Source: an uncultured Sulfolobales archaeon
GTDB lineage: Archaea > Thermoproteota > Thermoprotei_A > Sulfolobales > NBVN01
Reading direction: 5' to 3'
NCBI GenBank assembly: GCA_938045815.1
Contig: CALIBI010000007.1
Span: forward strand, 19,864 to 83,863
DNA length: 64,000 nucleotides
Shown: piece after piece, positions 26,706-61,753 of the stretch
Numbering within the stretch: the stretch's first letter is position 1
Layout: the number at the start of each line of letters is the position of its first letter
Notes under the pieces: generated by a model
Database searches by the model: none
Told to the model about the DNA's origin: nothing
The model's input: only the letters and a program-made list of their open reading frames with translations
Translations under genes and position numbers: made by a program

Positions 26706-28148
26706 TTGAGCTTTAGTGAGGAACTCTTAACTAGGTTAATTGATGAGGGAAGTTCTGCTGGAGCTTCTTACGTGGAGGTGCGTTATCAGAACGATTACGG
26801 CATCTTAGTTTCTATGAGGAATGGTAAGGTGTTAGGGGTTGGGTCATTCAAAGAAGAGGGTGTTGGAATTAGAGTCTTAGTTAACGGGTCTCTAGGGTTT
26901 GCAGCAACAAACGACTTAAGTAGGGAGGGTCTTAGTAAGGCACTCGAGAATGCTATTAGTAGAGCTAGGTCGGTAGCTCAACTGAGGAAGAACCCTATAC
27001 AATTTACTGAGGAGAAGGTTGGTAGAGCTTCTTACGAGGTCGTACCGAAAATTAAGTTAGAGGACGTGAGTATAGAGGGTTTGATGAGTTTAGGTAAGGA
27101 AGTATTTAGAGTTTTAACAGAGTCTGTTAGTCAGGTCAAGCTTCCGGTCTGCGTATTCAGTGCTGAGACCCACGTTCAAGAAAAACTAATTATTACATCG
27201 GACGGCGCTTACGTCAGGTCTAGAGTTCCTAGGATGTATGTCTCAGCTAATCTAGTACTCTTCCACCCGCAGAAAGGCACCCTACAAAGAATGAAGGAAT
27301 TCGGTAGTTCTGGTGGTGGTGAATTGCTTGATATGTGGAGACCTGTCGATGTTTTAGTAGATGAAGCTAAGAAGCTTGAGGTAGTTTTGGTGAACGGTGT
27401 TGAGCCTCCTAAAGAACCTGTTGACGTAGTTGTAGGGTCTGAGATAGTAGGGTTGTTAGTTCATGAATCGGCCGGACACCCTATGGAGGCTGACAGAATA
27501 TTAGGGCGTGAAGCTGCGCAAGCCGGAGAATCGTATGTTAAGCAGGAAATGATCGGTAGATTTAGGGTAGGTAATGAGTTAGCTACAGTGATTGAGGACC
27601 CCACAATACCTGGTAGTAACGGCTTCTACTTATACGATGATGAGGGAGTGCCTGCAAGACCTAGGTATCTCTATAAGGAAGGAATGATAAACGAGGCTCT
27701 CCATAACAGGCACACAGCAAATATCTTCGGTGTAAAAAGCAACGCTGCAGCCAGAGCAATGAATTACGCGTCGGAACCAATAATACGTATGAGTAACACT
27801 TACCTCAAACCAGGAACGATGAGTTTCGACGAACTTATTGAGGACATTAGTGCTGGAGTCTTCATTAAGTCCTACATGGAGTGGAACATTGACGACATAA
27901 GATGGAATCAAAGATATGTGGGTTTAGAAGCTTACGTAATAAGAGGTGGTGAGTTGGCTGAACCTGTTAGAAATCCAGCACTAGAAATAACTACTCAGGG
28001 GTTCTACAGCAACATAGTAGCTACCGATAAAGAACTAAAGTTCTATCCCGGTACTTGCGGTAAGGGAGAGCCTTCTCAGGGAATTCCTGTATGGTTTGGT
28101 GGTCCGAATGTTAGGATCTCCAAAATTAGGTTGGGGGTGACGGTGTGA
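26706..28148 (+). CDS. tldD: TldD metalloprotease (pair B)
   Basis: 480 aa, TTG start with GAGGTG 8 nt upstream. HESAGHPMEAD (HExxxH). Confidence 0.85.
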   Translation: MSFSEELLTRLIDEGSSAGASYVEVRYQNDYGILVSMRNGKVLGVGSFKEEGVGIRVLVNGSLGFAATNDLSREGLSKALENAISRARSVAQLRKNPIQFTEEKVGRASYEVVPKIKLEDVSIEGLMSLGKEVFRVLTESVSQVKLPVCVFSAETHVQEKLIITSDGAYVRSRVPRMYVSANLVLFHPQKGTLQRMKEFGSSGGGELLDMWRPVDVLVDEAKKLEVVLVNGVEPPKEPVDVVVGSEIVGLLVHESAGHPMEADRILGREAAQAGESYVKQEMIGRFRVGNELATVIEDPTIPGSNGFYLYDDEGVPARPRYLYKEGMINEALHNRHTANIFGVKSNAAARAMNYASEPIIRMSNTYLKPGTMSFDELIEDISAGVFIKSYMEWNIDDIRWNQRYVGLEAYVIRGGELAEPVRNPALEITTQGFYSNIVATDKELKFYPGTCGKGEPSQGIPVWFGGPNVRISKIRLGVTV

Positions 28149-29479
28149 TGACTGAGATTATTGAGTTAGGGAGGAAAGTAGTTGATAGGCTGAGGAAGAG
28201 CTACGATGATGTTGCTGTAGCTATGAGGGTTCGTGACAGAGTTATGGTTAAGCTCTGGAATACTGAGCCATCAGTAACTCAGAGCTGGTTGACTACGAGC
28301 GTGGCTTTACTGCTAACTAAAGCAAGGAAGGTTTTAACACTAGAATTTTCTGTTGGTAGGCCTGAGGAAGTTCTTGAAGCCATCGAGAAGATATCGAGTG
28401 TTGTTGAGAGGGTTGAGGAGTCAGAGCTTTACGCTCCCTTACCGGAGCCGCAGGAAGTGAAGCTGGTTGAGGGTTCTTTCGACACGAAAGTAATCAACGC
28501 GATGAAGGACCCGAGCGTATTGACTAAATTAATGGTTGACGCAGCTCTATCTGAAGGAGCTGAGAGAGTTGCGGGTACACTAACTTTAAGCAGTGATGAG
28601 AGAGTCTTAATCACTAGTAAGGGGTTTGAGGGTAGTGAGAAGAAAACACTGGTTGAAGCATACTTGAGAGCGTTTAAGAATGAGTTTAGCGGTCACTGGG
28701 CTTACGGATCAACGCACGTGAGGGATGAAGAGATTAAGGAGGTTGGTAAGAAGGCTGGTATGTATGCTTCAATAACTAGTAATAAGGTAGACCTACAACC
28801 AGGCAAATACGATGTAGTCCTCTCACCACTCGTGGTAGGTAATCTGATGAATTACGTGTCTTTCATGTCTTCAGCACTAGCAGTATTAGTAGGTTACTCG
28901 ATGTTTATGAAGTTCAAACCTGGAGATAGGGTGGCTTCAGAGAAACTCACGTTAATAGACGCGCCAAGAGATCCTACACTACCTAACGTAGCGTCTTTCG
29001 ATGATGAGGGAGTACCTACATACAATAAACCTATAATAGAGAAAGGAGTGTTCCGTAACCTACTCCACAATTCTGGTACAGCAACCAAACTCGGGGTTAA
29101 ATCAACAGGTAATGCTGGTTGGATAATGCCTAGTCCTTGGAACCTCCATATGGAGCCTGGAGACCTAAGAGAAGAAGAATTGATTAGTGAGTTAAGAAAT
29201 GGGGTAGTAATAACGAACAATTGGTATACTAGGTTGCAGAATTACGTTGAGGGGGTCTTCTCTACGGTCGCACGCGATGCTACACTACTAGTTAAAGAAG
29301 GTGAGATAGTAGGTAATGTTGGTAGGGTAAGAATAGCAACGAGTTTTCCGGAACTACTCAATAGTATTGAGGGGTTAACTAGACAAACATACGATATCAC
29401 GTGGTGGGAGGTCCAAACACCTATTAGAGCGCCCTACGTGCTGGCGAGGAATATCAACTTAACTAAACCTTACATATAA
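28145..29479 (+). CDS. pmbA: PmbA/TldE metalloprotease partner (pair B)
   Basis: 444 aa. GTGATG start overlaps the tldD stop. FDDEG block. Confidence 0.8.
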   Translation: MMTEIIELGRKVVDRLRKSYDDVAVAMRVRDRVMVKLWNTEPSVTQSWLTTSVALLLTKARKVLTLEFSVGRPEEVLEAIEKISSVVERVEESELYAPLPEPQEVKLVEGSFDTKVINAMKDPSVLTKLMVDAALSEGAERVAGTLTLSSDERVLITSKGFEGSEKKTLVEAYLRAFKNEFSGHWAYGSTHVRDEEIKEVGKKAGMYASITSNKVDLQPGKYDVVLSPLVVGNLMNYVSFMSSALAVLVGYSMFMKFKPGDRVASEKLTLIDAPRDPTLPNVASFDDEGVPTYNKPIIEKGVFRNLLHNSGTATKLGVKSTGNAGWIMPSPWNLHMEPGDLREEELISELRNGVVITNNWYTRLQNYVEGVFSTVARDATLLVKEGEIVGNVGRVRIATSFPELLNSIEGLTRQTYDITWWEVQTPIRAPYVLARNINLTKPYI

Positions 29480-42233: not shown

Positions 42234-44675
42234 CTAAATAACTAGGAAGATACCTTCAGCCAGCTTCACAGCACTAGCTACGTCGGTGGGAGCACCTATA
42301 ACGACTGACTTAATTTTATGGAGGTCCTTAATGTCGTGCGCTATCGCCTTATACTCTTCCGAGAGATACAACGTACCTTCTAGTGGTTCAGTAAACGATA
42401 TATTCTTTTCTTTCTTATACTTCCATATTGCTGAGTTAGCTGTTATTAGGTACTCTATTAGCTTCTCATCACCGCCTAAATCTCTTAAGTCTTCCTCAGT
42501 TATCGTAACTCTCCTTAACCCGTCACCAGAATACATATTCCTCCACAGATAATCCGTGACGAAAGGCATTACTGGATGTAGAGTCTTTAGTATGAGCTTG
42601 AAGACTCTGTGTAGAACGTACCTAGCGCCGTTCACGTACCTCATGTCGTAATCACCTAAACCGTAAGCTCTCAGCTTAACACTCTCAAGATAGTTTGAAG
42701 CGAAAACATCCCACGCTAGTGCGTATAACTCGTTTATCGGTCTGAAAACATCGAGTTCCTCATAGTGCTTGAGTACCTTCTTGATTACTGAGACAGCGTA
42801 CTTAAGCATAGCTCTATCTAGATCCTTTAAAACGGAATCTCTTAGAGGAGGTTCTTCAAAGAATGAGATAAATCTCCCTATATTGACTAACTTAGTTGCG
42901 AAAGCTAGCCCACTCCTAACTAAGTCCTCCGACCACCTGTAATCACTACCAAGCATGCCGGAGATCGCTGCCCAATACCTGAACGCGTCAGCACCGTACT
43001 TCTCGATATACGGCAATGGCGGGACGATATTGCCGAGAGACTTATGCATTGCCCTACCCTTAGGGTCTAAACCCATACCAGAAATCCTAACCCACCTAAA
43101 AGGAGGTTTGCCAGTAAGCAGCCAGACACGTAGTGTGGAGTAGTAGAGCCAGGTTCTTATTATGTCGTATCCCTGAGGTCTGAGCGAGTGATCCAGTGCT
43201 TTGAGAGCAGCTTCCTTATTTTCGAGCCATCTAGTCACGTACAAAACACTTATTGAAGAATCAAACCACGTATCGAAGGTTCTGGTCTCACCTACTAGTT
43301 CTTCTCTTGGAGCCCCGCAGTTAGGGCATTTCTCGTGGGGTGGCGGGTCTATCCAAGGTCTCACATACTCACCATACTTACCGAAAACTATGTGTCCGCA
43401 CTTCCTACATCTCCAGATAGGTATTTCAGTTCCGTAGAATCTAGTCCTAGAGATAGGCCAGTCCATCTTTAATGAAGTCACCCAACTATCAAACTTTACC
43501 TTATGCTCAACAGGTTTGAAGATCATCATGTTACCTATCCTTAGTACATCGTCCTTGAAATCTAGCTGCTTCAGAAAGAACTCTCTGACGTGAATATACT
43601 CTACCGGTGTTTTACACCTCCAGCAAACAGGAACCTCGTGCTTTAGGTCTTCCTCCCTGACCAGGAAATTATTCTTACGTAACTCCTCCACCATGACTTT
43701 CCTAGCCTCCCTAACGCTCAACCCCTTAAGAATCCCTGCATTCTCGTTCATGGTTCCGTCTAAATTGATAAGTATTCTGGGGGTAAGTCCCTGCTCCTTA
43801 AAGAACCAGATATCTCTGGTGTCTCCGTAAGAACACATCATCGCTAGCCCGGTCCCGAACTCAGGATTAGCGTAAGTGCTAGGCATCACAGGTATTACGT
43901 TATTATATAGGGGGATGATCGCGTGCTTTCCTTCAAGATACTTATACCTAGTATCATCGGGGTGAAAAATAACAGCACCACACCCGTTAAGTAATTCAGG
44001 TCGGGTAGTAGCTATCACTACATCTTCGTTAGTCTCGAGAACCCTAAACCTAATGTAGTATAACTTACCTTCCTCCTCCTTCATCTCTATTTCTGCTTCA
44101 GCAAGTGACGTCCTACATCTAGGGCACCACATTACTGGTCTCTCAGCTTCGTATATTAGGCCCTTACTCCATAAATCGATGAAGGTAGCTTGAGTTAGTC
44201 TCCTATACTTCGGGGAGTCTGTTCCGTCAGTCCAATACTGGAATGAGCACCCTAACCTCTTCCACACCTTAACTAAGGAAGCCTCATACTCATCTAAAAC
44301 CTCACTAACCAGCTTAAGAAACTTGAGCCTCCCTTCAGGAGTATTAGCTATCTCGTGTGCTGAAATCCCGTACCGTTTCTCTACCGTTACCTCACCAGGC
44401 AAGCCGTTCCTATCTGCGTAGAAAGGCAGCAGAACCTTATATCCAAGTAACCTCAACGCGCGAGCCACCATATCTATCTGGGCGTAGTGAGCTGCCTGAC
44501 CAACACCCCATTCTCCGGAGGGGTAGGGTGGTGGTGTGTCTATAACTACGTACTTATCCTCGCTTAGAAAATCTATTAAAGGCTCCTCAAATTTTTCTTC
44601 CTCCCACTTCCTGAGTAGTTCCTCCTCTAGAGAGGAACCCCACCTCTTAATTTTTATTTTCGGTTCTAGTACCAC
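42234..44675 (-). CDS. valS: Valyl-tRNA synthetase-like class Ia aaRS with degenerate HIGH and KMSKS signatures
   Basis: 813 aa. Archaeal ValRS-like blocks IDTPPPYPSG, TTRPELL, EFGTG..MCSYGD (editing), WPISRTRFYG, zinc knuckles. The HIGH position reads GVGQ and the KMSKS position reads AMHKS. Confidence 0.75.
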   Translation of the reverse strand: MVLEPKIKIKRWGSSLEEELLRKWEEEKFEEPLIDFLSEDKYVVIDTPPPYPSGEWGVGQAAHYAQIDMVARALRLLGYKVLLPFYADRNGLPGEVTVEKRYGISAHEIANTPEGRLKFLKLVSEVLDEYEASLVKVWKRLGCSFQYWTDGTDSPKYRRLTQATFIDLWSKGLIYEAERPVMWCPRCRTSLAEAEIEMKEEEGKLYYIRFRVLETNEDVVIATTRPELLNGCGAVIFHPDDTRYKYLEGKHAIIPLYNNVIPVMPSTYANPEFGTGLAMMCSYGDTRDIWFFKEQGLTPRILINLDGTMNENAGILKGLSVREARKVMVEELRKNNFLVREEDLKHEVPVCWRCKTPVEYIHVREFFLKQLDFKDDVLRIGNMMIFKPVEHKVKFDSWVTSLKMDWPISRTRFYGTEIPIWRCRKCGHIVFGKYGEYVRPWIDPPPHEKCPNCGAPREELVGETRTFDTWFDSSISVLYVTRWLENKEAALKALDHSLRPQGYDIIRTWLYYSTLRVWLLTGKPPFRWVRISGMGLDPKGRAMHKSLGNIVPPLPYIEKYGADAFRYWAAISGMLGSDYRWSEDLVRSGLAFATKLVNIGRFISFFEEPPLRDSVLKDLDRAMLKYAVSVIKKVLKHYEELDVFRPINELYALAWDVFASNYLESVKLRAYGLGDYDMRYVNGARYVLHRVFKLILKTLHPVMPFVTDYLWRNMYSGDGLRRVTITEEDLRDLGGDEKLIEYLITANSAIWKYKKEKNISFTEPLEGTLYLSEEYKAIAHDIKDLHKIKSVVIGAPTDVASAVKLAEGIFLVI

Positions 44676-46078: not shown

Positions 46079-47005
46079 ATGAAGGGTGTTTTAGTAATTC
46101 ATTGTGGGGCTGGAACTTGGAGAGGTGTTGATGAGGAAACCATAAAGAAAGTGATAGTGGATACTCTAAGGAGAGGGATTGACGTATTAGTGGGTGGGGG
46201 TACAGCTTTAGACGCGGTTGTTGAGGCTACTATGTCGTTGGAGGATTCAGGGGTTTTGAATGCTGGTCTTGGTTCAGTGCCTGACTTAAGAGGTAATGTG
46301 TGGATGGATGCTGGTGTGATGGATGGTTGGAGCGGTCGCGCGGGAGCTGCTGCCGCGGTCACATATCCTAAAAACCCAGTACTCTTGGCTCGCAAGATTC
46401 TCGAATTAACAGATCATATTATGTTGGCTGGTAGCGCTGCTGACGAGTTAGCGATTAAATTAGGTCTTCCTAAACATCCAGGACCTTCCGAAAGAGTTAA
46501 GAAGCGTTATGAGGAAGTACTCAAGAAAGCGTCTTCAGGTGATGCGGTATTTAAGAAGAGTTTCGAGTTAGCTCAGAAATTAGGTTACTTCGATACTGTT
46601 GGTGCGGTTGCTTTAGATAATGAGGGTAAGCTAGCTGCAGCAGTATCTACTGGCGGCGTAATCTTGAAGTTCCCGGGACGTGTTGGTGACTCAGCAATCC
46701 CTGGCGCGGGATTCTACGCTAATAAGTACGGAGCTGCTGTAGCTACGGGGATAGGTGAGACAATAATGATGAGTATGTTATCGCTCAGAGCAGTAAACCT
46801 GATTAGTGAGGGGTATTTAGCTGATACTGCCGCTCGCTTAGCTATTCAGTACCATACGTCTCTGTACGGCAAAGATACTGCAGGACTCATAACACTCGAT
46901 TATAGAGGTAATGCGTACGGTGCTTACAACACGCAGGCGATGCCATGGGGTTACGCGAAAACAGAAACGAGAGAAGTCGTGATTTCAGGGCTTAAGAAAC
47001 CATAA
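46079..47005 (+). CDS. Isoaspartyl peptidase/L-asparaginase (Ntn hydrolase, plant type)
   Basis: 308 aa. IHCGAG, autoprocessing/nucleophile context FDTVGAVALD, GIGE. Confidence 0.85.
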   Translation: MKGVLVIHCGAGTWRGVDEETIKKVIVDTLRRGIDVLVGGGTALDAVVEATMSLEDSGVLNAGLGSVPDLRGNVWMDAGVMDGWSGRAGAAAAVTYPKNPVLLARKILELTDHIMLAGSAADELAIKLGLPKHPGPSERVKKRYEEVLKKASSGDAVFKKSFELAQKLGYFDTVGAVALDNEGKLAAAVSTGGVILKFPGRVGDSAIPGAGFYANKYGAAVATGIGETIMMSMLSLRAVNLISEGYLADTAARLAIQYHTSLYGKDTAGLITLDYRGNAYGAYNTQAMPWGYAKTETREVVISGLKKP

Positions 47006-47623
47006 ACTTTTTCGCGGCTTTCTAGTTCTTATTATTCTTAATGCCTCCTCACGTAGCTTAATGTCTGTGCTTAACTCACCTCTCGTTGTGAGAGTAACCA
47101 TACTTAAAGGTTCTTCTACCCCCCGTATTAGGGCGCACGTATGTATAGCTTCTATCATTACTAAGAGCCCCTCAGTTTTGAGTTTCTCGAACAAGTAGTC
47201 AGCTACTTCTTCTGTGAGTCTCTCCTGGAGCTGCAACCTCCTAGCAAAAACATCAACAACCCTAGCAAACTTACTTAACCCGAACACTTCATTGCTTGGA
47301 ACGTAAACTATGTAGGCATTCCCATAGAACGGTAGTAGGTGGTGTTCGCATATAGACCTAACAGGTATGTTTAGTATAGCAACGAGTCTGTTAGTACTTA
47401 TGTAGTTTGCTGAGTTAACGTAGAAATACTTCAGGTGCTCGTCCGGGTCTTTCCCGTACCCTGAAGCTAGCTCCCAGAGCCACATCCTAGCTACTCGTTC
47501 TGGTGTGTCCTTGAGTTCAGGTCTATCGGGATTATCACCGATGAGTTTTATAAAGTCTCTCACAACATTCTTGAGTTTCTCAAACCTATCACTTAAGTCT
47601 TCCTCACTCACCATACTCAGCAC
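46985..47623 (-). CDS. folE: GTP cyclohydrolase I (FolE type)
   Basis: 212 aa. CEHHLLPF motif. Convergent 21-nt overlap with the asparaginase gene. Confidence 0.85.
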   Translation of the reverse strand: MLSMVSEEDLSDRFEKLKNVVRDFIKLIGDNPDRPELKDTPERVARMWLWELASGYGKDPDEHLKYFYVNSANYISTNRLVAILNIPVRSICEHHLLPFYGNAYIVYVPSNEVFGLSKFARVVDVFARRLQLQERLTEEVADYLFEKLKTEGLLVMIEAIHTCALIRGVEEPLSMVTLTTRGELSTDIKLREEALRIIRTRKPRKSLWFLKP

Positions 47624-48332
47624 CTACCTCCGAAGTACGTAGCTTAAATTCGATCACTAAGTCAATTCCGAGACCACGTAACGTTTCCTTAATCTTATCG
47701 ACTTTCTTACTTAAGACTAATATATCGTCTTCAGGGTTAACCAAGACTATCGCAGCTCCTTGATAGTGCACGCCATCAACATTTCTTACACGTAGATTGC
47801 TCAGACTTAAAGCATTTTTTCTGAATTCCTCCTTAATGAGTCTCGTTACGTCTAGTGAGGGGGCTGCGTCACCAACATACTTCATGATCTCGGAAAAAAC
47901 TTCTCTTAACTCGTAGAAAATATATAACGCCAGAATTAAAGCACCAACATAGTCTATGAAGTAACTAAGTAGTGCGCCAGCAAGAGAGGAGGTAATGACT
48001 ACCACACCCTCTATTAATTCGCTGGCCGTAAACTTAGAGTAGTGTGTGAAGACCCCGTTTAACTTCCTGGAAACAGATACAGCAATCAAATAACACGAGA
48101 CTCCCAGGAAAGCCATCAAAGGAGCTTCTAGAGATACCGTATACGCTCTGAACTCGATTAACCTGAGTGTTATTATGCCGGCAACGAATGAGTAGATCAT
48201 TAAGGTGGATATAGAGCCCCCGAACGCTAGCTTGTAGTGGCCGAAGTGATGATCTTCGTCCGGGGGCTTAAGACTGCTTCTCCAGTATCTTATAGCTAGT
48301 AGTAAAGCTAGCAGGTTCGCTATAGAGGTCAT
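47604..48332 (-). CDS. Cation diffusion facilitator (CDF) family transporter, 5'-disrupted (possible pseudogene)
   Basis: 242 aa from ATG 48332. HFGHYK loop and C-terminal cytoplasmic domain present. TM1 is encoded upstream in frame (48446-48333) but has no start codon and follows an in-frame TAG. Confidence 0.6.
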   Translation of the reverse strand: MTSIANLLALLLAIRYWRSSLKPPDEDHHFGHYKLAFGGSISTLMIYSFVAGIITLRLIEFRAYTVSLEAPLMAFLGVSCYLIAVSVSRKLNGVFTHYSKFTASELIEGVVVITSSLAGALLSYFIDYVGALILALYIFYELREVFSEIMKYVGDAAPSLDVTRLIKEEFRKNALSLSNLRVRNVDGVHYQGAAIVLVNPEDDILVLSKKVDKIKETLRGLGIDLVIEFKLRTSEVGAEYGE

Positions 48333-52092: not shown

Positions 52093-52587
52093 TTAAGGTA
52101 CTGGCTTATAGATCAACTTCTTCAGAGCTCTAACCCTTAATTCTTTAGCTACCTCAGCTGTAGTGCCCCACACTATAGCTCTGGTCGGACACATAGATAC
52201 ACATCCAGGCGTTAATCCTTCAGATCTTAGTGGGTTACATAAGTCACACTTAGTAGCAAATCCAGGCGGTATTATCTCGGGGATCCCGAAAGGACAGGCA
52301 GCTAAGCACGCAGAACATCCTATACACTTAGAAATATCTACTAAGACAGCGCCGTCCTTATCCCTATGCATAGCTCCAGTAGGGCATGCCGTAACGCAGG
52401 GTGCCTTAGCGCAGTGGAAGCACGATATAGGTTTGTTAAGTCCTCCCCCTATATCATACAACACTATGTAGCCCTTACCCTCGTGTATGAAGGAGCATAC
52501 TTCCTCACAGGTATAGCAACCTATACATACGTCATAATTTATTACTCGATTCACTCCCCCGTACTTACTAAAGGTTTCTAAATCCAT
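52093..52587 (-). CDS. HycB/NrfC-type 4x[4Fe-4S] electron-transfer protein
   Basis: 164 aa. Four Cys clusters: CIGCYTCEEVC, CFHCAKAPCVTACP, CIGCSACLAACP, CDLC...CVSMCP. Starts 1 nt after the stop of the flavoprotein gene. Confidence 0.85.
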   Translation of the reverse strand: MDLETFSKYGGVNRVINYDVCIGCYTCEEVCSFIHEGKGYIVLYDIGGGLNKPISCFHCAKAPCVTACPTGAMHRDKDGAVLVDISKCIGCSACLAACPFGIPEIIPPGFATKCDLCNPLRSEGLTPGCVSMCPTRAIVWGTTAEVAKELRVRALKKLIYKPVP

Positions 52588-52588
52588 C

Positions 52589-53644
52589 TCACACCACCTT
52601 CTTAGCTCTTAAGAAATGATCTAGGTGTGTAGCAGCCCTTAATCCACTCCCGATGGCTTTACCAATCATTGAAGGACCTGTGACTACATCTCCCGCAGCA
52701 AAGACTTTCTCAATCCCTGTCTGCATTCTCTCATTAACTATTATTGTCTTCCTCTTCGGGTCTACTTTAACGCCATCGCATTCGGTGTTTAGTGGCGGGG
52801 TCGGTATCTCTCCTACAGCCGCTAGAACCATATCCGCTTCTATGACGTGTTCTGTGCCAGGCATAGGTACTGGTCTGGGTCTTCCGGTTTCGTCAGGCTC
52901 TCCTAGCCTCATTTTAACGAATTCTACCCCAACTGCTTTATCGTTTGACACAACAACTTTAGTTGGTTGGATAAGTTCTACCCACTTAACACCCTCGGAA
53001 ACCACCCTACGTACCTCATACTCCCCTGCAGGTGCTTCTCTGATGGTTCTTCTGTAGGTTAGGTAGACTTCCTTAGCGCCCTTCATTAAGGCTACTTCTG
53101 CAGCGTCTATCGCGCTATACCCCCCGCCAATAACAACGACTTTATTACCTACTGGCGGTTTGTGTGTCGTGTATCCTAACTCATATGTCCACCAACTATA
53201 GACGTATTCTAGAGCTGAGAAAACCCCCTTAGCGTTATCTCCTGGCACACCTAATCTCCTCGAAGACCATATACCAGTCGTTAGTAACACGGCATCATAC
53301 TCGTTTACGATTTTCTTCAGGTCAATCAAGTTATTAATAAACTCGTCACCCTCATCGTGTCTAGGTTCGCCGCAGAAAACCTTAGTCCTATAACTAAACT
53401 TAACGCCGAAGTTCTTTTCAAGGTCTTCAATCCCTTCGGTGATGCTGTCTCTATGTATTCTGTATGGGGGTATACCGAACATCATCATGCCTCCTGCGAG
53501 AGGTAATTTCTCGTAAACGTCTACTTCATACCCATAACATACTAGGTAGCCCGTAGCTGCTAGACCCGCTGGACCACCACCCACAACAGCTACTTTACCT
53601 CTACCGCCCGCCTGCCCTTTCTTGCACATGAAAGCAAATTTCAT
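52589..53644 (-). CDS. GltD/SudA/NfnB-like NAD(P)H:FAD oxidoreductase lacking the N-terminal Fe-S domain
   Basis: 351 aa. Two dinucleotide folds VVGGGPAG and VIGGGYSAIDAA; AAGDVVTG. GAGGTGAT (53653-53660) lies 8 nt upstream of the ATG. Confidence 0.82.
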   Translation of the reverse strand: MKFAFMCKKGQAGGRGKVAVVGGGPAGLAATGYLVCYGYEVDVYEKLPLAGGMMMFGIPPYRIHRDSITEGIEDLEKNFGVKFSYRTKVFCGEPRHDEGDEFINNLIDLKKIVNEYDAVLLTTGIWSSRRLGVPGDNAKGVFSALEYVYSWWTYELGYTTHKPPVGNKVVVIGGGYSAIDAAEVALMKGAKEVYLTYRRTIREAPAGEYEVRRVVSEGVKWVELIQPTKVVVSNDKAVGVEFVKMRLGEPDETGRPRPVPMPGTEHVIEADMVLAAVGEIPTPPLNTECDGVKVDPKRKTIIVNERMQTGIEKVFAAGDVVTGPSMIGKAIGSGLRAATHLDHFLRAKKVV

Positions 53645-54461: not shown

Positions 54462-54963
54462 CCACCACCTTACTCCCTATCTTACGTGCGGTTAGTTTCT
54501 TCCTACACTCAGGACATACCTCGAGGAGGTCCTCAGGAACTTTATTCTCTATCCTCCTCTCAACCTCCTTAATAAGCTTCACTGTAGTAAAAGACTTACC
54601 GCAAATCCCGCACTTAACGGTTGTGTGAACCACCTCGTTATAAAGATCTCCTAACTCCCACGTAGCTAGCTCGAATTCCCTAGAAACCGTTATGGCTTTC
54701 TGAGGACACACGTAAGCACACATACCGCAGAAAATACACTTGCCTACGAAATACTTAAGTGTTGCTTCATCACCTTCGTAACTTATGGTCAGTGCTTTAG
54801 GAGGGCATATCCTCGTGCAGGCACCACACCCAACACACTTAACCGGGTCTACCTCAATTTTTCCTCTAAACTCAGGAGTAACTAATGGTGACTCGAAGGG
54901 GTACTTCCTTGTTGCGGTTCCTTCACGAACCGAGATAGAAAGCATCTTCAGGAATTTAACCAT
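54445..54963 (-). CDS. HycF/NuoI-like 2x[4Fe-4S] subunit with HycF-type C-terminal Cys ribbon
   Basis: 172 aa. TATRKYPFE, CVGCGACTRICP, CIFCGMCAYVCP, then KCGICGKSF...VCPECRKK (E. coli HycF has CNCRVCNRPF...CPECKR). Confidence 0.85.
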   Translation of the reverse strand: MVKFLKMLSISVREGTATRKYPFESPLVTPEFRGKIEVDPVKCVGCGACTRICPPKALTISYEGDEATLKYFVGKCIFCGMCAYVCPQKAITVSREFELATWELGDLYNEVVHTTVKCGICGKSFTTVKLIKEVERRIENKVPEDLLEVCPECRKKLTARKIGSKVVGVSGE

Positions 54964-56668
54964 CCTTCCACCTCCTCCTAGAAATAACCTCTAGAGGTAG
55001 TGTCTTAATATTACCTGATTTCAAGTTTATGATTAATGCTCTGTCAGTACATGAGAAGCATGGGTCTATGCTGGCTATAGTTAGTGGTGCGTCAGCTAAG
55101 TCAACTCCTTTAAGCATTATTGGGACTGCCTGGAGGTTCTGGTACGTCGGGGCTCTAACTCTCCACCTGTACGGCCCATAAAGATCTGTTATGACTACGT
55201 GTATTACCTCACCCCTAGGAGCTTCTACTGAGCCGATCCCTAACCTCATTGGTTGGGGTTCCCATCTCTCAGCTTTTATAGGACCGCTCGGCAGCATATC
55301 AATAAGTTGCTCAATTATGCTTATACTCTCAAAAACCTCGTCTATCCTAACCAGAGTTCTTGCTAAGTTATCGCCTTCAGTGTAAACAGGTACTTTGAAG
55401 TTGACGTAGTGATAAGCTGCGTAAGTGTAATCTTTTCTCACATCTCTCGCTAACCCGGAGCCCCTGGCAGTCGGGCCTACTAGAGAGTATGCTCTAGCCT
55501 CACCCCTAGGGAGTATGCCTGTACCTGTGAGTCTTGCCCTAACTTGCGGCACGCTGGTTGCAACATCTACGAACTCCTTAAATTCTTTCTTTAGCTGGTT
55601 TAACGTTTCTCTGATTTTAGGTATTTTATCCTTATCAATATCTTTCTTAACACCCCCAACTAAATCTATGCCGTAAGTCTTCCTACTACCCGTTAGTAGT
55701 TCTGCTAGCACCATGACTTTCTCTCTGATCCTCCAAGCATGCATGAAGCCTGTATCATAACCTAGCAAATGAAGAGCTACACCAAGCCATAGGAGGTGAC
55801 TATGCAGTCTCTCCACCTCAAGAACTATAGATCTTATGAAGTGTGCTCTCTCAGGTACTTCTATCCCTAGCGCGTCCTCAACCGCCTGAACGTAGCTAGT
55901 TGAGTGAACGAATCCGCAGATCCCGCAAATACGTTCAGCCAAGAAAGGAACTTGGTCATACTTCATGCTCTCCGCGAGTTTCTCAATACCTCTGTGAACC
56001 ATGAAACCAACATACCTCGCATCAACTACTTTCTCTCCTCTAACATACAGCTCGAAATACTCGGGCTCGTGAAGTGCTGGGTGGTAAGGACCAACAGGTA
56101 TTCTCACAACCTCCTCCACACCTAATTCAGAAATACGAGACACTACTTGAGGCTGGTACAACTTCTTTATTTCATCCATGCTAACATCCTTTCTTAGCGG
56201 GTAAAGCTCTTCCGGCCAGTCATCAGGCAGAACTAATCTCCTCAAAGCCCTGCCGTTGAATTCCACTCCTACGAGGTCGTGTGCTTCCAGCTCGTACCAG
56301 TCAGAAGCTCTGAAAAGATCACTTATGGTGTCTACCTTAACCCCGTCCGTTACAGGTACTTCAAAAACAATATTTGTTCCTTCACTATCAATCCCGAACA
56401 CGTAATAAAGCTTAATAAGACCCTCCCTAAGTCTCTCGTCTGAAGCACTCATAGTCCTGAAGTATAGGTCATGTTCTTTATAGATGTTCTCGAGAGCAGT
56501 TCGTAAGCAATTAGCTTTAATCTTTACTCTGATAGTAACACCACTCCTACTCAAACCTAGTAATGAATCCTTGCAAACACTAAGTGCTTTTGATAATATA
56601 GCGTGACTTCTAGGACCCCTAGATAATTCTTCTATCATTTCATTAAGCTCATTAAGATCATAACTCAC
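54956..56668 (-). CDS. Group-4 [NiFe] hydrogenase large subunit, HycE-like NuoC-NuoD fusion
   Basis: 570 aa, GTG start. NuoC-like N-domain (DWYELEAHDLVGVEF). L1 motif RICGICGFVH (55904-55933). C-terminal DPCFSCTDR (55040-55066) followed by a 27-aa extension. Confidence 0.9.
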   Translation of the reverse strand: MSYDLNELNEMIEELSRGPRSHAILSKALSVCKDSLLGLSRSGVTIRVKIKANCLRTALENIYKEHDLYFRTMSASDERLREGLIKLYYVFGIDSEGTNIVFEVPVTDGVKVDTISDLFRASDWYELEAHDLVGVEFNGRALRRLVLPDDWPEELYPLRKDVSMDEIKKLYQPQVVSRISELGVEEVVRIPVGPYHPALHEPEYFELYVRGEKVVDARYVGFMVHRGIEKLAESMKYDQVPFLAERICGICGFVHSTSYVQAVEDALGIEVPERAHFIRSIVLEVERLHSHLLWLGVALHLLGYDTGFMHAWRIREKVMVLAELLTGSRKTYGIDLVGGVKKDIDKDKIPKIRETLNQLKKEFKEFVDVATSVPQVRARLTGTGILPRGEARAYSLVGPTARGSGLARDVRKDYTYAAYHYVNFKVPVYTEGDNLARTLVRIDEVFESISIIEQLIDMLPSGPIKAERWEPQPMRLGIGSVEAPRGEVIHVVITDLYGPYRWRVRAPTYQNLQAVPIMLKGVDLADAPLTIASIDPCFSCTDRALIINLKSGNIKTLPLEVISRRRWKDG

Positions 56669-56704
56669 TTCTTCCTACCCCCTCTATTACTATGTTATTT
56701 ACGT

Positions 56705-57616
56705 TTAAATACCAATCCAAGTAAAAATCACCAAAACAATTAAAACAAGTAAGTAGTATGTGAACAAAGTCCTCACACCTATATCTACGCGTGTCCTCCC
56801 TAAGAGAGCAGCTACTACACCGTAAGCCAGGTAGAAACACATCGAAAGCAGTAAGGACATTGGGAAAACTACTAGTAGGGTGGGGAGGGAAGTTATGAAT
56901 GGGGTTGCTAAAGCTATAGCTACTAGAAGAGATAGAACGTACCTCATTAATAGGTGTGTGTATATGTAGAAGCCAAGTAGCTTACCACTAAACTCTATGA
57001 GAATTCCTGAAGCTAGCTCAGGTTCTGCTTCATGAATATCGAATGGTAAGCGACCACTACTAACGTACGTAGCGATTAGCAAGATCGCTAGGCTCGACAA
57101 ATAAATAATAAGTGTTGAGATCGAGTAATTAGTCACTAGCCTAAGACCTGAAAGAATAGAGAAGAAACTACCCACAACTAACCCGAGCTCGTTAAGTACT
57201 GTTAAGAGTATGCTTCTGTAGCTACCTATTAAAGCGAATGGGTTGGAAGTCGTAGCTGAAGCTACTAAACCTAAACTATGTGAAGCAGCAACGAGAACCA
57301 AAAACATAGCTAAGACTATTAAGTCTACGTTAGTAGTTAGTGTTAGAACTACGTAAACCACAGCATAAAGAGACATTAAAGTTACTAGTAGTGAGAGTAT
57401 GATCAGGAACGCCGCGGACTCCCCGCTAATAGGTATCTTGAGCTCCTTAACACCTAGCTTAAGTAAGTCGTACCATGTCTGAAAAAGAGTTGGTGGTCCA
57501 ATCCTGCTCTGTATTTTAGCTCGAACTTTCCTCTCAATACCGTCTAGTAGTGGGGGTAGGAAAGAAAGTATGGACATAAGCAAGAGAGAAAGTAAGGCTA
57601 TCGCTAAGGCCTCCAT
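56705..57616 (-). CDS. HycD/NuoH-like membrane subunit
   Basis: 303 aa, about 8 TM. ERKVRAKIQSRIGP, LPFDIHEAEPEL blocks. Confidence 0.85.
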   Translation of the reverse strand: MEALAIALLSLLLMSILSFLPPLLDGIERKVRAKIQSRIGPPTLFQTWYDLLKLGVKELKIPISGESAAFLIILSLLVTLMSLYAVVYVVLTLTTNVDLIVLAMFLVLVAASHSLGLVASATTSNPFALIGSYRSILLTVLNELGLVVGSFFSILSGLRLVTNYSISTLIIYLSSLAILLIATYVSSGRLPFDIHEAEPELASGILIEFSGKLLGFYIYTHLLMRYVLSLLVAIALATPFITSLPTLLVVFPMSLLLSMCFYLAYGVVAALLGRTRVDIGVRTLFTYYLLVLIVLVIFTWIGI

Positions 57617-57975
57617 GCTAGAAACACCATGAATAACATCGTAAAAACTACTAGCAAGTTCATGTATAGGGAGGTAAAGGATAGAGCGTCCTCAACAAAC
57701 GAGGTTAAATCTATCAGATCCTTAGCGAACGCTTTATAGTACCTGTAGAGCGAAGACTCACCAACACTAAATATCTTGTATATACGGCTAGCAGCATCAA
57801 GTATGTGGTACGCGAACGATCTCTCTCCTCTCTCAAACTCCTGCCCCACATCATAGTAGAAACTCATCTTGACTGCTGAAGGAGCTAACTTCTTTAAGTA
57901 CTTACGTAGTATGTCACTAAGTCTACTCATGATTGACGCGGACTCAGAACTCAAGGCAGCATTCCCCCCAACCAA
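57604..57975 (-). CDS. Hypothetical 123-aa protein with single C-terminal TM, inside the hydrogenase operon
   Basis: No motif recognised. Overlaps both neighbours (25 and 13 nt). The true start may be an internal Met. Confidence 0.45.
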   Translation of the reverse strand: MVGGNAALSSESASIMSRLSDILRKYLKKLAPSAVKMSFYYDVGQEFERGERSFAYHILDAASRIYKIFSVGESSLYRYYKAFAKDLIDLTSFVEDALSFTSLYMNLLVVFTMLFMVFLAWRP

Positions 57976-59477
57976 GATTCTTCTCTAGCACTCCTTTTTA
58001 TGTAAGAGTAAGTATAGAATATGAGTACAGACATCATTGCTGTAGCTAGACTTATCGGAACCACGTAGATCAAGTCTAGCGAGATTACACCGGTGATCGC
58101 TACAACAACATAGATAGGTATCGTTAACACGATGTTGAGTATTGAGAGTCCTAGTTCTGAAGCTTCAGTACCGGTGCTCGGATTTAGTTCTTTAAGTTTG
58201 CTGGTGGATGTCGCCCCCCAGTAAACAGTTATGTATCTTAAGCCGTAAGCAACAGCTAAAGCAGCACCTAGAGCAGCAACTACTAGGAGTAACGCTGATG
58301 CTGTTGCTGATACCTGGTATACTGATACTAGTCCTGCCAGGAGTAGTATCTTTCCTAGGAATCCTAGTGTTGGTGGCGTGCCTATTAAGGAGAGGATGGA
58401 AAGTAATGCTGTCATGGTGGGTTTACTAGCTACTTTGGCTAGGTATCCTAGCTTGCTTAAGTCTCTGGTGTGCGTTATTATTTCAACAGTGCCTGAATTC
58501 ATGAAGAGAGTAGCTTTAAAAATTCCGTGAGCTACTGAGTAAACTAGTGCTGCAGTGAGGAGTAGGTCTATCTTGTAAGCGCCGTAGGATGCTAGCGCTA
58601 TCGCTATTAAGCTAGTATTCTCGATAGTGCTGTAAGCTAAGATCCTCTTAATATCTGCTTGTATGAGAGCTTGCAAACCACCGTAGATGACCGTTAGTGA
58701 CGCGAGAACTAGTAGTGCTTGATACACGTAAGCAGACTCAATAGCAGGTAACACTAGGTAGAATCCATAAATACCCATCTTAACCATCACTCCAGACAAG
58801 ATTGCTGAGGCCGGGGCTGGTGCTAGCGAGTGCGCGTCAGGCAGCCAGAAATGAAATGGTGCTACGGCGGCTTTCGCGAGCAACCCAACAGCTACTATTA
58901 AGTGCAGTACTGGATTAATGCCTAGTAAGTTAGTGCTTAGTTCGTTAAGAGGTAACTGAAAAGCTTCCGCGAAGCCTAGCCTTATAGCTGTGGATCCAAG
59001 TATCGTGAGAAGAGCTACGTCTGCCGGAACCATAGAAACAAGTAAGTACCTGAGTCCAGCTATTAAAGTCCTTCTCTCCACCTCAAAAACTATTGCAAAG
59101 AAACCTACTATCTCAGCGAAAAGCCAGAACATCACGAAGCCTACTAAATTCTCTGATATGAACACTAAGTAAATACTTAAAGCGAATAGGTCTATCAATA
59201 TCGTTAAGTTTCTTCCCGGGTATTTGTGATGCTCGTAACGCGCAGTATATGGTGTTACGAACAACGCTACTATCGAAGCTAGTAAAGCAAACAAACCTCT
59301 AACAAGACTTAAAGGTTGACTAATTATTACTACAGAGTAGAGTAACATCACTGTGGGAGAACCATACCTCAGGATTAGTGATGCTCGCGGGTGTCTAGTC
59401 TTAACTACGTTACCTACAACGTAGAGCAGGAAAGAGACGAAAGCAATAACGTAAGGATATAACCACCTATCCATCAT
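57951..59477 (-). CDS. Antiporter-like membrane subunit, HycC/HyfB/NuoL-M-N family
   Basis: 508 aa, about 14 TM. WLPDAHSLAPAPASAILSGVMVKMG block. Confidence 0.85.
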   Translation of the reverse strand: MMDRWLYPYVIAFVSFLLYVVGNVVKTRHPRASLILRYGSPTVMLLYSVVIISQPLSLVRGLFALLASIVALFVTPYTARYEHHKYPGRNLTILIDLFALSIYLVFISENLVGFVMFWLFAEIVGFFAIVFEVERRTLIAGLRYLLVSMVPADVALLTILGSTAIRLGFAEAFQLPLNELSTNLLGINPVLHLIVAVGLLAKAAVAPFHFWLPDAHSLAPAPASAILSGVMVKMGIYGFYLVLPAIESAYVYQALLVLASLTVIYGGLQALIQADIKRILAYSTIENTSLIAIALASYGAYKIDLLLTAALVYSVAHGIFKATLFMNSGTVEIITHTRDLSKLGYLAKVASKPTMTALLSILSLIGTPPTLGFLGKILLLAGLVSVYQVSATASALLLVVAALGAALAVAYGLRYITVYWGATSTSKLKELNPSTGTEASELGLSILNIVLTIPIYVVVAITGVISLDLIYVVPISLATAMMSVLIFYTYSYIKRSAREESWLGGMLP

Positions 59478-59504
59478 TTACTACCCCTACTAATACTCTA
59501 GTCT

Positions 59505-59546
59505 CACTACTTAAAAATACATAAATATTTACCCCATTATATAAAG
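59505..59546 (-). promoter_or_regulatory. Candidate internal promoter between Mrp and hydrogenase modules
   Basis: The only sizeable gap (95 nt) in the cluster. Minus strand carries CTTTATATAATGG, AAATATTTATG and TTTTTAAG TATA-like elements 28-69 nt upstream of ATG 59477. Confidence 0.35.
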
Positions 59547-59572
59547 ATCTCCTCAAATCATTTAAATCCATT

Positions 59573-61246: not shown

Positions 61247-61753
61247 CTAATCAAAAATTTTTAAGGCGTATTCGTCAAAAACCTTACTTACCTCCTTATA
61301 GGACTCCTCAGGTTCCGTTGTCTTCGCGTATATCCAGTGAACGTAGATATTCCCTTTCTCCTTATTAAGATCAATAACGACAGTACCTGGAGTATTAGTT
61401 ATGGAGAGAGAAACTAGAGTTATTCCGTAATCGTCCCTAGTTTTTATGGGAATCTTAACTATAGCAGGCCTTAAATCTAGTTTAGGACTTAAACTCAATC
61501 TAATTAGGAGTAAGTGAGCCTTAACTTCGTCTATGAAGAAATACCTAAGAGCAAACCTAACTAAGTTGCTAAACCTCCTCAAACTTATACTCTTCCTCCA
61601 GTCTTCTACTAGCAAGCTTGAGGTGAGTATCCCTACGATGAGAGCTACTAAAACGCCTGTGAAGATATCGTAGAGTCTTAAAGACCCTGTGTACGTCACG
61701 TAGATAATGAATGAGAGTATTACCGGAACTATAGACTTATACAGCCTCTTCAT
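61247..61753 (-). CDS. MrpE/MnhE-like subunit
   Basis: 168 aa. Two N-terminal TM plus soluble domain with SLSITNTPGTVVID. Confidence 0.7.
   Translation of the reverse strand: MKRLYKSIVPVILSFIIYVTYTGSLRLYDIFTGVLVALIVGILTSSLLVEDWRKSISLRRFSNLVRFALRYFFIDEVKAHLLLIRLSLSPKLDLRPAIVKIPIKTRDDYGITLVSLSITNTPGTVVIDLNKEKGNIYVHWIYAKTTEPEESYKEVSKVFDEYALKIFD

Follow-up and report, generated by a model that had tools for sequence, protein, structure and literature searches.

The valyl-tRNA synthetase (ValRS) encoded by a 64,000-nucleotide stretch of DNA from an uncultured Sulfolobales archaeon (referred to as the window) harbors GVGQ in place of the HIGH motif and AMHKS in place of the KMSKS motif, and is probably the sole housekeeping ValRS of its host, with a remodelled active site in which other residues would compensate for the lost side chains. 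HIGH and KMSKS are the defining motifs of class I aminoacyl-tRNA synthetases. The protein comes from an archaeal lineage of hot springs that comprises Zestosphaera, Zestomicrobium, and relatives, and appears to be orthologous to its counterparts in Desulfurococcus, Pyrodictium, and Acidilobus. It very probably activates valine, charges tRNAVal, and edits through its CP1 domain.

Results

The gene encodes a full-length archaeal-type ValRS

An ORF of 813 codons with a GTG start was present where a previous reading of the sequence alone (the sequence-only reading) had located it, and inspection of the DNA and of the ORF list confirmed the positions of both motifs (Table 1). The product matched the NCBIfam model NF009687/PRK13208 over residues 6 to 794 with a score of 839 bits, above the cut-off of 738, and contained the Pfam domains tRNA-synt_1 and Anticodon_1. 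The score obtained with the general valS model TIGR00422 (546 bits) was under the cut-off of 612. The best sequence match identified by phmmer was the ValRS of T. thermophilus, 1GAX (E=1.4e-96), and 1gax_A was also the top Foldseek match (TM 0.86, 30% identity) of the AF2 model (pLDDT 92.2). The query is fully colinear with canonical ValRS (1GAX, PRK13208), with the same domain order (CP1-split Rossmann fold, zinc knuckles, anticodon-binding helical domain) and agreement at the valine-pocket and editing residues; it differs from 1GAX by the presence of GVGQ for HMGH and AMHKS for KMSKS.

The ValRS editing-domain chains 1WKA and 1WK9 aligned to residues 202–343. Invariant CP1 columns in a 28-sequence family alignment comprised A222, T223, R225, P226, E227, G274, G276, G284, D285, and D288. 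All the landmarks named by the sequence-only reading (PPPY, TTRPE, GTG, SYGD, WPISR, and four Cys pairs) were found, and none of them varied across the family alignment. The pocket and adenylate ligands of 1GAX, reported to be Pro41, Pro42, Asp81, Trp456, Asp490, Ile491, and Trp495 (Fukai et al., 2000), have as equivalents P48, P49, D88, W470, I505, and W509, all invariant in the 28 sequences, and D504, conserved in at least 90% of them; G502, R507, and T508 were also invariant. Upstream from the start codon, TATAAATT and GGTGAT might act as expression signals for valS. Scanning of the 64-kb window for tRNAs and with Rfam gave zero matches.

Table 1. Position of valS and of its features in the window.
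Feature	Position	Strand	Basis
valS, archaeal-type valine--tRNA ligase, full-length	42234..44675	-	ORF, NCBIfam, Pfam, 1GAX, AF2, Foldseek
Putative expression signal TATAAATT	44718-44711	-	Upstream of valS GTG, read from sequence
Putative Shine-Dalgarno-like GGTGAT	44684-44679	-	Upstream of valS GTG, read from sequence
P48-P49-P50, valine pocket (= Pro41/Pro42 of T. thermophilus ValRS)	44526..44534	-	Gap-free 1GAX alignment; invariant
HIGH-position tetrapeptide G57-V58-G59-Q60 (canonical H-x-G-H)	44496..44507	-	DNA reading; = H50-M-G-H53 of 1GAX
His63, 3 residues past GVGQ ('AAH')	44487..44489	-	Invariant in GVxQ and HVGx groups
Asp88 (= Asp81 of 1GAX, substrate alpha-amino group)	44412..44414	-	Alignment; D88-R89-N90-G91 invariant
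CP1 editing domain with TTRPE, GTG, SYGD..D, ~residues 201-345	43641..44075	-	1WKA/1WK9 match
W470-F-D-S-S474 (= Trp456 of 1GAX, valine pocket)	43254..43268	-	Alignment; F467 to S474 invariant
G502-Y-D504-I505-I-R-T-W509 (= D490/I491/W495 of 1GAX, ribose and valine pocket)	43149..43172	-	Alignment
KMSKS-position pentapeptide A542-M543-H544-K545-S546	43038..43052	-	= K528-MSKS532 of 1GAX
Anticodon-binding helical domain, residues 620-766	42378..42818	-	Pfam PF08264, E=1.3e-23

GVGQ and AMHKS occupy the positions of HIGH and KMSKS

Reading of the DNA from 44507 to 44496 gave GGT GTT GGT CAG, specifying G57-V58-G59-Q60. In the phmmer alignment with 1GAX, PPPNVTGSLHMGHA was paired with PPPYPSGEWGVGQA in the absence of any gap, and GQKMSKSKGN of 1GAX was paired with GRAMHKSLGN of the query. 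Most of 110 diverse ValRS representatives (clusters at 50% identity) have H-x-G-H and K-M-S-K-S in the corresponding columns. In the AF2 model, G57 caps the N-terminus of helix 58–76, after strand 42–45, which is the site of the canonical first His. Mis-registration of the motifs was ruled out by the gap-free alignment to 1GAX from PPP to Asp88, the matching columns of the 110 representatives, and the AF2 helix starting at residue 58, in support of the register proposed by the sequence-only reading. The same alignment and AF2 evidence ruled out a register shift making Q60-A-A-H63 the real HIGH motif, His63 being at most a possible helper. A His residue occupies position 63 in 4 of the 12 representatives devoid of the fourth His, compared with 2 of the 98 harboring it; His63 might be a compensating residue.

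Only position 3 (Gly) of the HIGH signature (HxGH) retains the canonical residue. In the KMSKS loop, the first Lys is absent and the Ser at position 3 is replaced by His, whereas the Met and the final Lys-Ser pair are kept; M543, H544, K545, and S546 were invariant in the 28-sequence alignment. The initial description of both motifs as degenerate is overstated for AMHKS, and the retention of the second Lys and of the Ser, as originally pointed out, was confirmed. Of the 110 representatives, 108 have this second Lys. Overall, K545 is the only canonical catalytic side chain left in the query, the other three of the four being missing.

The motif states are distributed along a lineage

The sequence xMHKS was detected in all 120 nearest homologues, with AMHKS in 113 of them and EMHKS or PMHKS in the remaining seven. 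The bearers include the cultured Desulfurococcus (D. amylolyticus and D. mucosus), Thermogladius, and Pyrodictium, as well as Hyperthermus, and complete genomes are available for cultured species among them. At the HIGH position, the consensus G.LH[LM]GHA given by the sequence-only reading for archaeal ValRS is valid for most ValRS but not for the closest relatives, which read W-H-[VI]-G-[GA]-A-A-H, indicating that the fourth His was lost before the GVxQ lineage arose. Many ValRS of TACK and Asgard archaea lack the fourth His (HxGA/G), this state occurring in Hodarchaeales, Nitrososphaeria, some Thermoplasmatota, and Thermoprotei. Position 1, by comparison, is a His in 109 of the 110 diverse representatives.

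The GVxQ clade comprises at least 47 protein clusters at 90% identity. All 47 members have Gly at position 1 and Gln at position 4, position 3 being Ala in most of them and Gly in the query (GV[A/G]Q). The substitutions H57G and G60Q were perfectly coupled, and the GVxQ and HVGx groups did not overlap. Among the best 80 of at least 567 matches, the GVxQ carriers were 27 GTDB species representatives, and the question of whether the motifs are clade-wide, raised by the sequence-only reading, was answered by the ubiquity of xMHKS and by this coherent GV[A/G]Q clade of species-level genomes. Carriers include the cultured Zestosphaera tikiterensis NZ3 and Ca. Zestomicrobium tamdykulense. Ca. Z. tamdykulense, whose MAG reaches 98.7% completeness (PMC11467010), encodes a ValRS with 94% identity to the query.

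The stem of the GVxQ clade was short, its branches were of ordinary length, and the clade was nested within the HVGx radiation. In a neighbor-joining (NJ) tree, monophyly of GVxQ was recovered in 65 of 100 bootstraps and the HVGA protein P0056 was its sister in 63 of 100, providing only moderate NJ support for a single origin of GVxQ. The HVGQ of Ignisphaera was not supported by the NJ tree as a direct intermediate (GVxQ and HVGQ monophyletic in 0 of 100 bootstraps; sister HVGA P0056). The ValRS of Desulfurococcus, Thermogladius, Pyrodictium, and Acidilobus (HVG[G/A] and AMHKS) are 52–57% identical to the query and share with it the A/E/PMHKS loop, the absence of the fourth His, and His63 of 'AAH'. 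In contrast to the query, they keep the first His and have Gly or Ala, rather than Gln, at position 4.

On this distribution, GVGQ and AMHKS are lineage traits acquired in steps rather than private defects. The first step would be loss of the fourth His of HxGH, leading to HxGA/G. The first Lys of KMSKS would then have been replaced by Ala (AMSKS), followed by replacement of the Ser at loop position 3 by His, leading to AMHKS, a form that occurs throughout the Desulfurococcales/'Sulfolobales' radiation. Finally, replacement of the first His by Gly together with that of Gly or Ala by Gln at position 4 would have generated GV[A/G]Q in the clade of Zestosphaera, Zestomicrobium, and the window. 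Every state of the resulting series (HIGH/KMSKS, HxGA/KMSKS, HVGA/AMSKS, HVGG/AMHKS, and GVAQ/AMHKS) appears to survive in living archaea. A literature search on AMHKS, MHKS, or HVGG motifs in ValRS retrieved no relevant paper, and AARS Online and a review of aaRS duplications (PMC9437257) are silent on these motifs in ValRS.

The catalytic core is under strong selection

Comparison of the query with its 94%-identical orthologue gave an overall dN/dS of 0.055, with values of 0.013 for the N half of the Rossmann fold, 0.034 for its C half including the KMSKS loop, 0.055 for CP1, and 0.105 for the anticodon domain. Constraint on the gene is thus tightest in the catalytic Rossmann halves. At matched divergence, the per-domain identities of the GVxQ clade equalled those of the HVGx group, and the catalytic halves contained 75+108 invariant sites in the former and 75+94 in the latter. 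None of these comparisons (dN/dS by region, domain identities, and invariant sites) revealed any sign of relaxed constraint in GVxQ ValRS. Within the GVxQ clade, G57 is specified by each of the four Gly codons and Q60 by each of the two Gln codons, indicating that both residues were maintained through synonymous turnover. H57G and G60Q each involve at least two nucleotide substitutions in the codon. Q60 and H544 were strictly kept over ~40% sequence divergence which, together with the coupling of H57G to G60Q, argues for selection on these residues.

These data bear on the possibility that the query is a sole ValRS that has undergone uncompensated decay tolerated by slow growth, or that operates with changed kinetics as a markedly slower activator, Gln60 and His544 being no true replacements. 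Activation might then depend on tRNA, as it does in GluRS, GlnRS, and ArgRS, which require tRNA for amino-acid activation and of which GluRS naturally harbors HVGG. The survival of K545 as the only one of the canonical four side chains is in line with this explanation, as is the association of altered-motif IleRS2-type enzymes with slower-growing bacteria. We nonetheless consider it unlikely since the perfect coupling of H57G and G60Q, the strict conservation of Q60 and H544, and the unrelaxed constraint all stand against it.

No second copy of the ValRS family was detected

No second valS was found within the 64-kb window. Genomes were scanned with the patterns [KR][VT]FDTWFD and DWPIS[RK][TSD]R[YF], which are specific to the ValRS family of the query and to which a foreign valS, of bacterial or euryarchaeal type and acquired by transfer, would be invisible. 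The best 80 of at least 567 matches were 80 ValRS-family loci in 80 different assemblies; with these family-specific patterns and among these matches, no assembly contained a second family copy, and none of the 27 GVxQ genomes contained a locus of the HVGx type. Gene order did not bridge the GVxQ/HVGx boundary: pairing of valS with a radical SAM gene was conserved solely inside the subclade of the query, another GVAQ subclade had the order aS21-EF1beta-valS-RsmB, and the Desulfurococcus group the order radical SAM-x-valS-PHP. Synteny was therefore uninformative, and orthology is deduced from the tree and from the mutual exclusivity of the two types.

If a canonical ValRS were encoded elsewhere in the genome, most plausibly following horizontal transfer, the query could be a paralogue or pseudo-synthetase with lost or changed aminoacylation, acting as an editing-only trans-factor, a producer of Val-AMP, or a regulator in the manner of LeuRS-I. 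The sequence-only reading had left the choice open between such a paralogue and a lineage-specific catalytic solution. The loss of three of the four canonical side chains, including a first His otherwise kept in nearly all representatives, could be explained in this way, a scan limited to same-family copies would overlook the canonical partner, and LeuRS-I sets a precedent in Crenarchaeota for class Ia duplicates that do not charge tRNA (PMC9437257). However, no second family copy was found in the window or in the 27 GVxQ assemblies of the matches scanned, and the GVxQ clade takes the place of the HVGx type instead of co-occurring with it. Moreover, constraint on the protein peaks in the Rossmann halves, the ligands of valine, of the ribose, and of the amino group are invariant, and both CP1 and the C-terminal domain are intact, in contrast to those of LeuRS-I. 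Finally, AMHKS and the missing fourth His are common to cultured species with complete genomes, and the duplication review contains no ValRS case (PMC9437257). We therefore regard the paralogue as very unlikely and favor the lineage-specific solution. The occurrence of the same substitutions in relatives, by which the sequence-only reading would have recognized a lineage trait, was largely observed, the sole-copy status applying to the ValRS family of the query.

Selection of GVxQ for weaker binding of an aminoacyl-adenylate or ATP-site mimic produced by competitors in hot-spring communities, the query still being an active housekeeping ValRS, has a parallel in the mupirocin hyper-resistance of IleRS2 G/AXHH, whose altered motif increases the mupirocin Ki by as much as 1000-fold at little catalytic cost, and in the His-to-Gln substitution at position 4 of S. 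aureus IleRS1 arising under mupirocin in the laboratory. The two or more nucleotide substitutions in each of two codons, followed by strict maintenance, fit directional selection. This explanation is, however, highly improbable, as the IleRS2 mechanism needs a bulky His at position 3 that clashes with the drug, where Gly or Ala is present here, and as a resistance-gene context of valS was looked for and none was found. We know of no ValRS-targeting natural product from hot-spring habitats and of no antibiotic link for GVxQ ValRS.

Discussion

For the preferred reading, a sole and active ValRS with a remodelled active site, we propose that stabilization of the transition state at the ATP phosphates would involve K545 and the backbone amides at the N-terminus of helix 58–76. 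The amide of Gln60 would contact the phosphates, in the manner of the Asn of TrpRS TIGN, and His544 of the mobile loop possibly also contributes to their stabilization. Whereas the sequence states, their phylogenetic distribution, and the strength of selection are shown by the data, both the enzymatic activity and the identity of Gln60 and His544 as the residues compensating for the lost side chains are inferences. A bolder version, which we consider possible but doubtful, is that a sole essential class Ia synthetase operates on K545 alone among the canonical side chains, the imidazole having moved from the HIGH helix to loop residue His544 and the amide of Gln60 being positioned on the phosphate. 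If this shift is real, the surviving stepwise series would be a natural mutational path, and would show how far the stabilization of the class I transition state can be redistributed and which share is provided by the backbone and by domain motion.

A whole archaeal clade, one cultured species included, appears to rely on a His-free HIGH motif and an altered KMSKS loop. With the graded intermediates of related lineages, its thermostable natural variants offer a test set for the side chains needed in adenylate formation by subclass Ia enzymes, and for ideas on backbone-driven catalysis. Annotation pipelines or quality filters based on motifs would wrongly call GVxQ valS genes defective, the score of the query with TIGR00422 being already under the cut-off.

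Among known systems, LeuRS-I of the Sulfolobaceae (Weitzel et al., 2020, as reviewed in PMC9437257) is a non-charging LeuRS duplicate with a disrupted CP1 and a divergent C-terminus, present alongside a canonical LeuRS. Both are crenarchaeal homologues of class Ia synthetases in which the active site or the function is unusual. It differs from LeuRS-I in that its domains are intact, that no partner copy was detected by the family-specific scan, and that its catalytic core is tightly constrained.

Mutation of the first His has a ~1000-fold cost in several class I enzymes, and the 2023 report of a natural G/AXHH motif in IleRS2, which is active with a kcat of 45 per s, came as a major surprise (Brkic et al., 2023, PMC10485003). 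In IleRS2, the His at position 3 structurally takes the place of the first one, and the fourth is still present. The query, probably a housekeeping enzyme as well, shares with this fully active enzyme membership of class Ia, the clade-wide distribution, and a first HIGH residue that is Gly or Ala. It departs from the G/AXHH signature at position 3 (Gly, or Ala in most of the clade) and at position 4 (Gln), and its KMSKS motif is also altered. The GVGQ tetrapeptide, unlike that of IleRS2, contains no His to replace the first one, an observation that counts against the main reading.

Active class I enzymes devoid of canonical HIGH residues are also known outside subclass Ia. E. coli GluRS (PDB 8I9I) harbors HVGG and is active without the fourth His. 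This tetrapeptide is the same as that of the sister ValRS group, although GluRS is of another subclass and still has the first His. The KMSKS motif of TrpRS is canonical. TrpRS of G. stearothermophilus (TIGN; PDB 1D2R/1I6K) is an active class I enzyme with neither His of the HIGH motif. It resembles the query by the absence of these residues and by an amide side chain at position 4 (Asn in TrpRS, Gln in the query), but is a subclass Ic enzyme with Thr at position 1, whereas the query belongs to subclass Ia and has Gly.

Identity of the valS product and register of its signature motifs

The window protein is a member of the valyl-tRNA synthetase (ValRS) family by all tests but the canonical signature strings. 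It scored 839 bits against the NCBIfam model NF009687/PRK13208 (cut-off 738), matched the Pfam families tRNA-synt_1 and Anticodon_1, and had as its closest solved relative the ValRS of T. thermophilus (1GAX, E=1.4e-96). An AlphaFold2 model built from a 28-sequence alignment (mean pLDDT 92.2) retrieved 1gax_A as its top Foldseek match in the PDB (TM 0.86). The protein itself is present in public collections, where others of its 90% cluster are annotated as valine--tRNA ligase of Zestosphaera sp. The score against the general valS equivalog model, TIGR00422, was under the cut-off (546 versus 612); annotation relying on this model alone could miss or down-rank this ValRS, although it passes PRK13208.

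The sequence-only reading had placed GVGQ at the HIGH position and AMHKS at the KMSKS position, a register borne out by the DNA, by the alignment with 1GAX and by the AlphaFold2 model. In the phmmer alignment with 1GAX, PPPYPSGEWGVGQA of the window ValRS pairs without gaps with PPPNVTGSLHMGHA, and GRAMHKSLGN pairs with GQKMSKSKGN of 1GAX. In the model, a strand (residues 42-45) is followed by Gly57 directly before the helix 58-76, which is the canonical site of the first His of HIGH.

Features of the window
Feature	Position	Strand	Remarks
TldD/PmbA-family metallopeptidase genes, adjacent pair	10336-13055	-	
ORF, 458 aa	16868-18244	-	no Pfam match at E<=1e-5
TldD/PmbA-family metallopeptidase genes, separate adjacent pair	26706-29479	+	
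Radical-SAM gene, 350 aa	41155-42207	-	directly downstream of valS
valS, archaeal-type ValRS, full-length, 813 aa	42234..44675	-	GTG start; ORF confirmed
AMHKS, KMSKS position, residues 542-546	43052..43038	-	DNA reading and 1GAX alignment
GVGQ, HIGH position	44507..44496	-	codons GGT GTT GGT CAG in DNA
GTP cyclohydrolase I gene	46985-47623	-	
Cation-efflux-family ORF	47604-48332	-	3' end overlaps GTP cyclohydrolase I gene start by 20 nt
Polyferredoxin and pyridine-nucleotide disulphide oxidoreductase	52093-53644		
Mrp-antiporter-like and NiFe-hydrogenase/complex I-like subunit genes	54956-62970	-	fused 30-kDa/49-kDa/NiFe large-subunit protein, NADHdh, two Proton_antipo_M, MnhB

The last cluster resembles a membrane-bound hydrogenase (Mbh/Mbx-type) module. 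The match of the cation-efflux-family ORF covers only profile positions 33-192 of 198, and its N-terminus may be truncated or its start mis-called. Over positions 1-64000, ARAGORN detected no tRNA gene, and no Rfam family reached its gathering score.

Distribution and order of the substitutions

All 120 nearest homologues (52-89% identity), including those of Desulfurococcus amylolyticus, D. mucosus, Thermogladius, and Hyperthermus, contain AMHKS or E/PMHKS. The HIGH position splits them cleanly into GVAQ or GVGQ (47 clusters, the GVxQ clade) and HVGG, HVGA, HVAG or HVGQ (68 clusters, the HVGx group, which keeps the first His). One check proposed in the sequence-only reading was whether GVGQ/AMHKS is clade-wide: AMHKS or E/PMHKS runs through both groups, and GV[A/G]Q through one. 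H57G and G60Q were coupled without exception and maintained in the GVxQ clade; beyond these positions, just three columns (494, 552, and 581) distinguish the two groups. The change from His to Gly takes at least two nucleotide substitutions, as does that from Gly/Ala to Gln, and across the clade position 57 uses all four Gly codons and position 60 both Gln codons.

In neighbor-joining trees, the GVxQ group nests inside the HVGx/AMHKS radiation; the stem leading to it is short, and its branches are of ordinary length. Its monophyly was recovered in 65/100 bootstrap replicates, and an HVGA protein (P0056) was its sister in 63/100. The outgroups set the order of the steps: HLGG/KMSKS (Hodarchaeales), then HIGA/KMSKS (a cluster labelled Thermoplasmatota), HVGA/AMSKS (Nitrososphaeria), HVGG/AMHKS, and finally GV[A/G]Q/AMHKS. 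The HVGQ proteins of Ignisphaera did not group with the GVxQ clade in the ValRS tree, and Gln at position 4 may have had two separate origins. The ValRSs of two Ignisphaera MAGs (loci L078 and L082) and of P0101 read P-H-V-G-Q; the combination of the first His with Gln at position 4 therefore exists in nature.

We aligned 110 full-length ValRS representatives of 50% identity clusters, obtained by searching 1.84 billion proteins. The first position of HIGH was His in 109/110, with one Thr, the third was Gly in 108/110, and the fourth was His in 98/110, with A, G, N, Q, R or T in the rest, each of them an archaeal-type protein. The first Lys of KMSKS was present in 99/110 and the second in 108/110. 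Archaeal ValRS has therefore lost the fourth His and the first Lys more than once; what is exceptional, on this sampling, is to lose the first His. The sole other representative lacking it, the bacterial-type P0247, reads L-T-M-G-H with a canonical KMSKS. The third loop residue was His (xMHKS) in 5 of the 11 representatives devoid of the first Lys versus 0/99 of those retaining it. This His is found in Desulfurococcales-type AMHKS, Methanomethylicota/Culexmicrobium MMHKS, Marsarchaeota EMHKS, and further PMHKS and PMHTS proteins, the PMHTS representative having also lost the second Lys. Its presence in several separate lineages suggests a recurrent functional swap of Lys1 for His3.

Selective constraint

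The dN/dS ratio against a 94%-identical orthologue was 0.055 for the whole gene, 0.013 for the N-terminal Rossmann half containing the GVGQ site, 0.034 for the C-terminal half with AMHKS, 0.055 for the CP1 editing domain, and 0.105 for the anticodon-binding domain. An 89%-identical orthologue gave the same regional picture. At matched overall divergence, per-domain identities were the same in the GVxQ clade and the HVGx group, and the catalytic halves contained 75+108 and 75+94 invariant sites, respectively. In the 28-sequence family alignment, P48, P49, D88, W470, I505, and W509 were invariant and D504 was at least 90% conserved; we take these residues to be the equivalents of the valine-pocket and adenylate ligands of 1GAX. 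Also invariant were M543, H544, K545, and S546, the editing motifs TTRPE, GTG, and SYGD..D, and four Cys pairs. As far as sequence can tell, such a pattern marks a functioning synthetic site, and neither an editing-only nor a decaying protein.

Copy number in carrier genomes

The family alignment was used to scan one genome per GTDB species with patterns specific to this ValRS family, and the best 80 of at least 567 matches were kept. They originated from 80 different assemblies; 27 were of the GVxQ type. Carriers include Zestosphaera tikiterensis NZ3, described in a reference cited in PMC11467010 as the cultured host of Nanoclepta. The closest match among these 80 (94% identity) was Ca. Zestomicrobium tamdykulense TW002, a MAG of 1.3 Mb with 41.3% GC and 98.7% completeness (PMC11467010).

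The sequence-only reading had proposed a search for a second valS. None was found elsewhere in the 64-kb window, and no assembly contributed two loci to the best 80 matches, an answer that holds for family-type copies, which are what the patterns reach. A horizontally acquired second valS of foreign type could have escaped these family-specific patterns and the cut at 80 of at least 567 matches, and may, with low probability, accompany the GVxQ copy. A duplication that left the ancestral copy in place should show as a copy close to the HVGx proteins (51-57% identity) present in every sister lineage, and such a copy should match the patterns; no GVxQ genome had an HVGx locus among these 80. Synteny does not help on this question because none of the three distinct conserved valS contexts spans the GVxQ/HVGx boundary. 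The radical-SAM gene beside valS is kept in the subclade of the window ValRS (loci L004-L019, 46-88% identity) and is absent from the remaining GVAQ and HVGx genomes; in another GVAQ subclade the context is aS21-EF1beta-valS-RsmB-like methyltransferase.

Between the two readings offered initially, clade-wide motifs, constraint, and the lack of a second family copy among the loci seen favor a lineage-specific catalytic solution over a paralogue with altered or lost activity, and we consider GVGQ/AMHKS to be, with good probability, such a solution.

Proposed mechanism and comparison with known systems

By residue-to-residue comparison, the window ValRS keeps all known valine- and adenosine-moiety-binding residues and all known editing residues, together with the second Lys of the loop (K545). 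K545 and the backbone of the helix N-terminus would supply stabilization of the phosphate and transition state, to which the amide of Gln60 could contribute by analogy with the Asn of TrpRS TIGN. His544 may add to this stabilization; restriction of the xMHKS His to backgrounds lacking the first Lys suggests that it is a functional replacement. His63, invariant in the family, may also help; His occupies this position in 4/12 representatives without the fourth His versus 2/98 with it. So far at the level of sequence, the GVxQ proteins and their relatives form a clean natural series, amenable to testing, in which the signature motifs of a class Ia synthetase erode.

The TrpRS of G. stearothermophilus has Asn at position 4 of TIGN (checked in PDB chain 1D2R), where the window ValRS has Gln60, and E. 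coli GluRS (HVGG) is active without the fourth His. IleRS2 with G/AXHH is an active class Ia enzyme without the first His (kcat of 45 per s in D. radiodurans; Brkic et al., 2023, PMC10485003). In IleRS2, the His at position 3 replaces the first His, whereas GVGQ contains no His; membership in that class is therefore rejected, and the ValRS would be the more radical solution. The window ValRS does not look like the non-charging duplicate LeuRS-I, in which CP1 is disrupted and which occurs beside a canonical copy (PMC9437257). Our literature search found no paper on AMHKS, or on a HIGH motif without His, in ValRS. Housekeeping synthetases of class I with non-canonical signature motifs are already known, and the GVGQ/AMHKS ValRS would be a further, different case.
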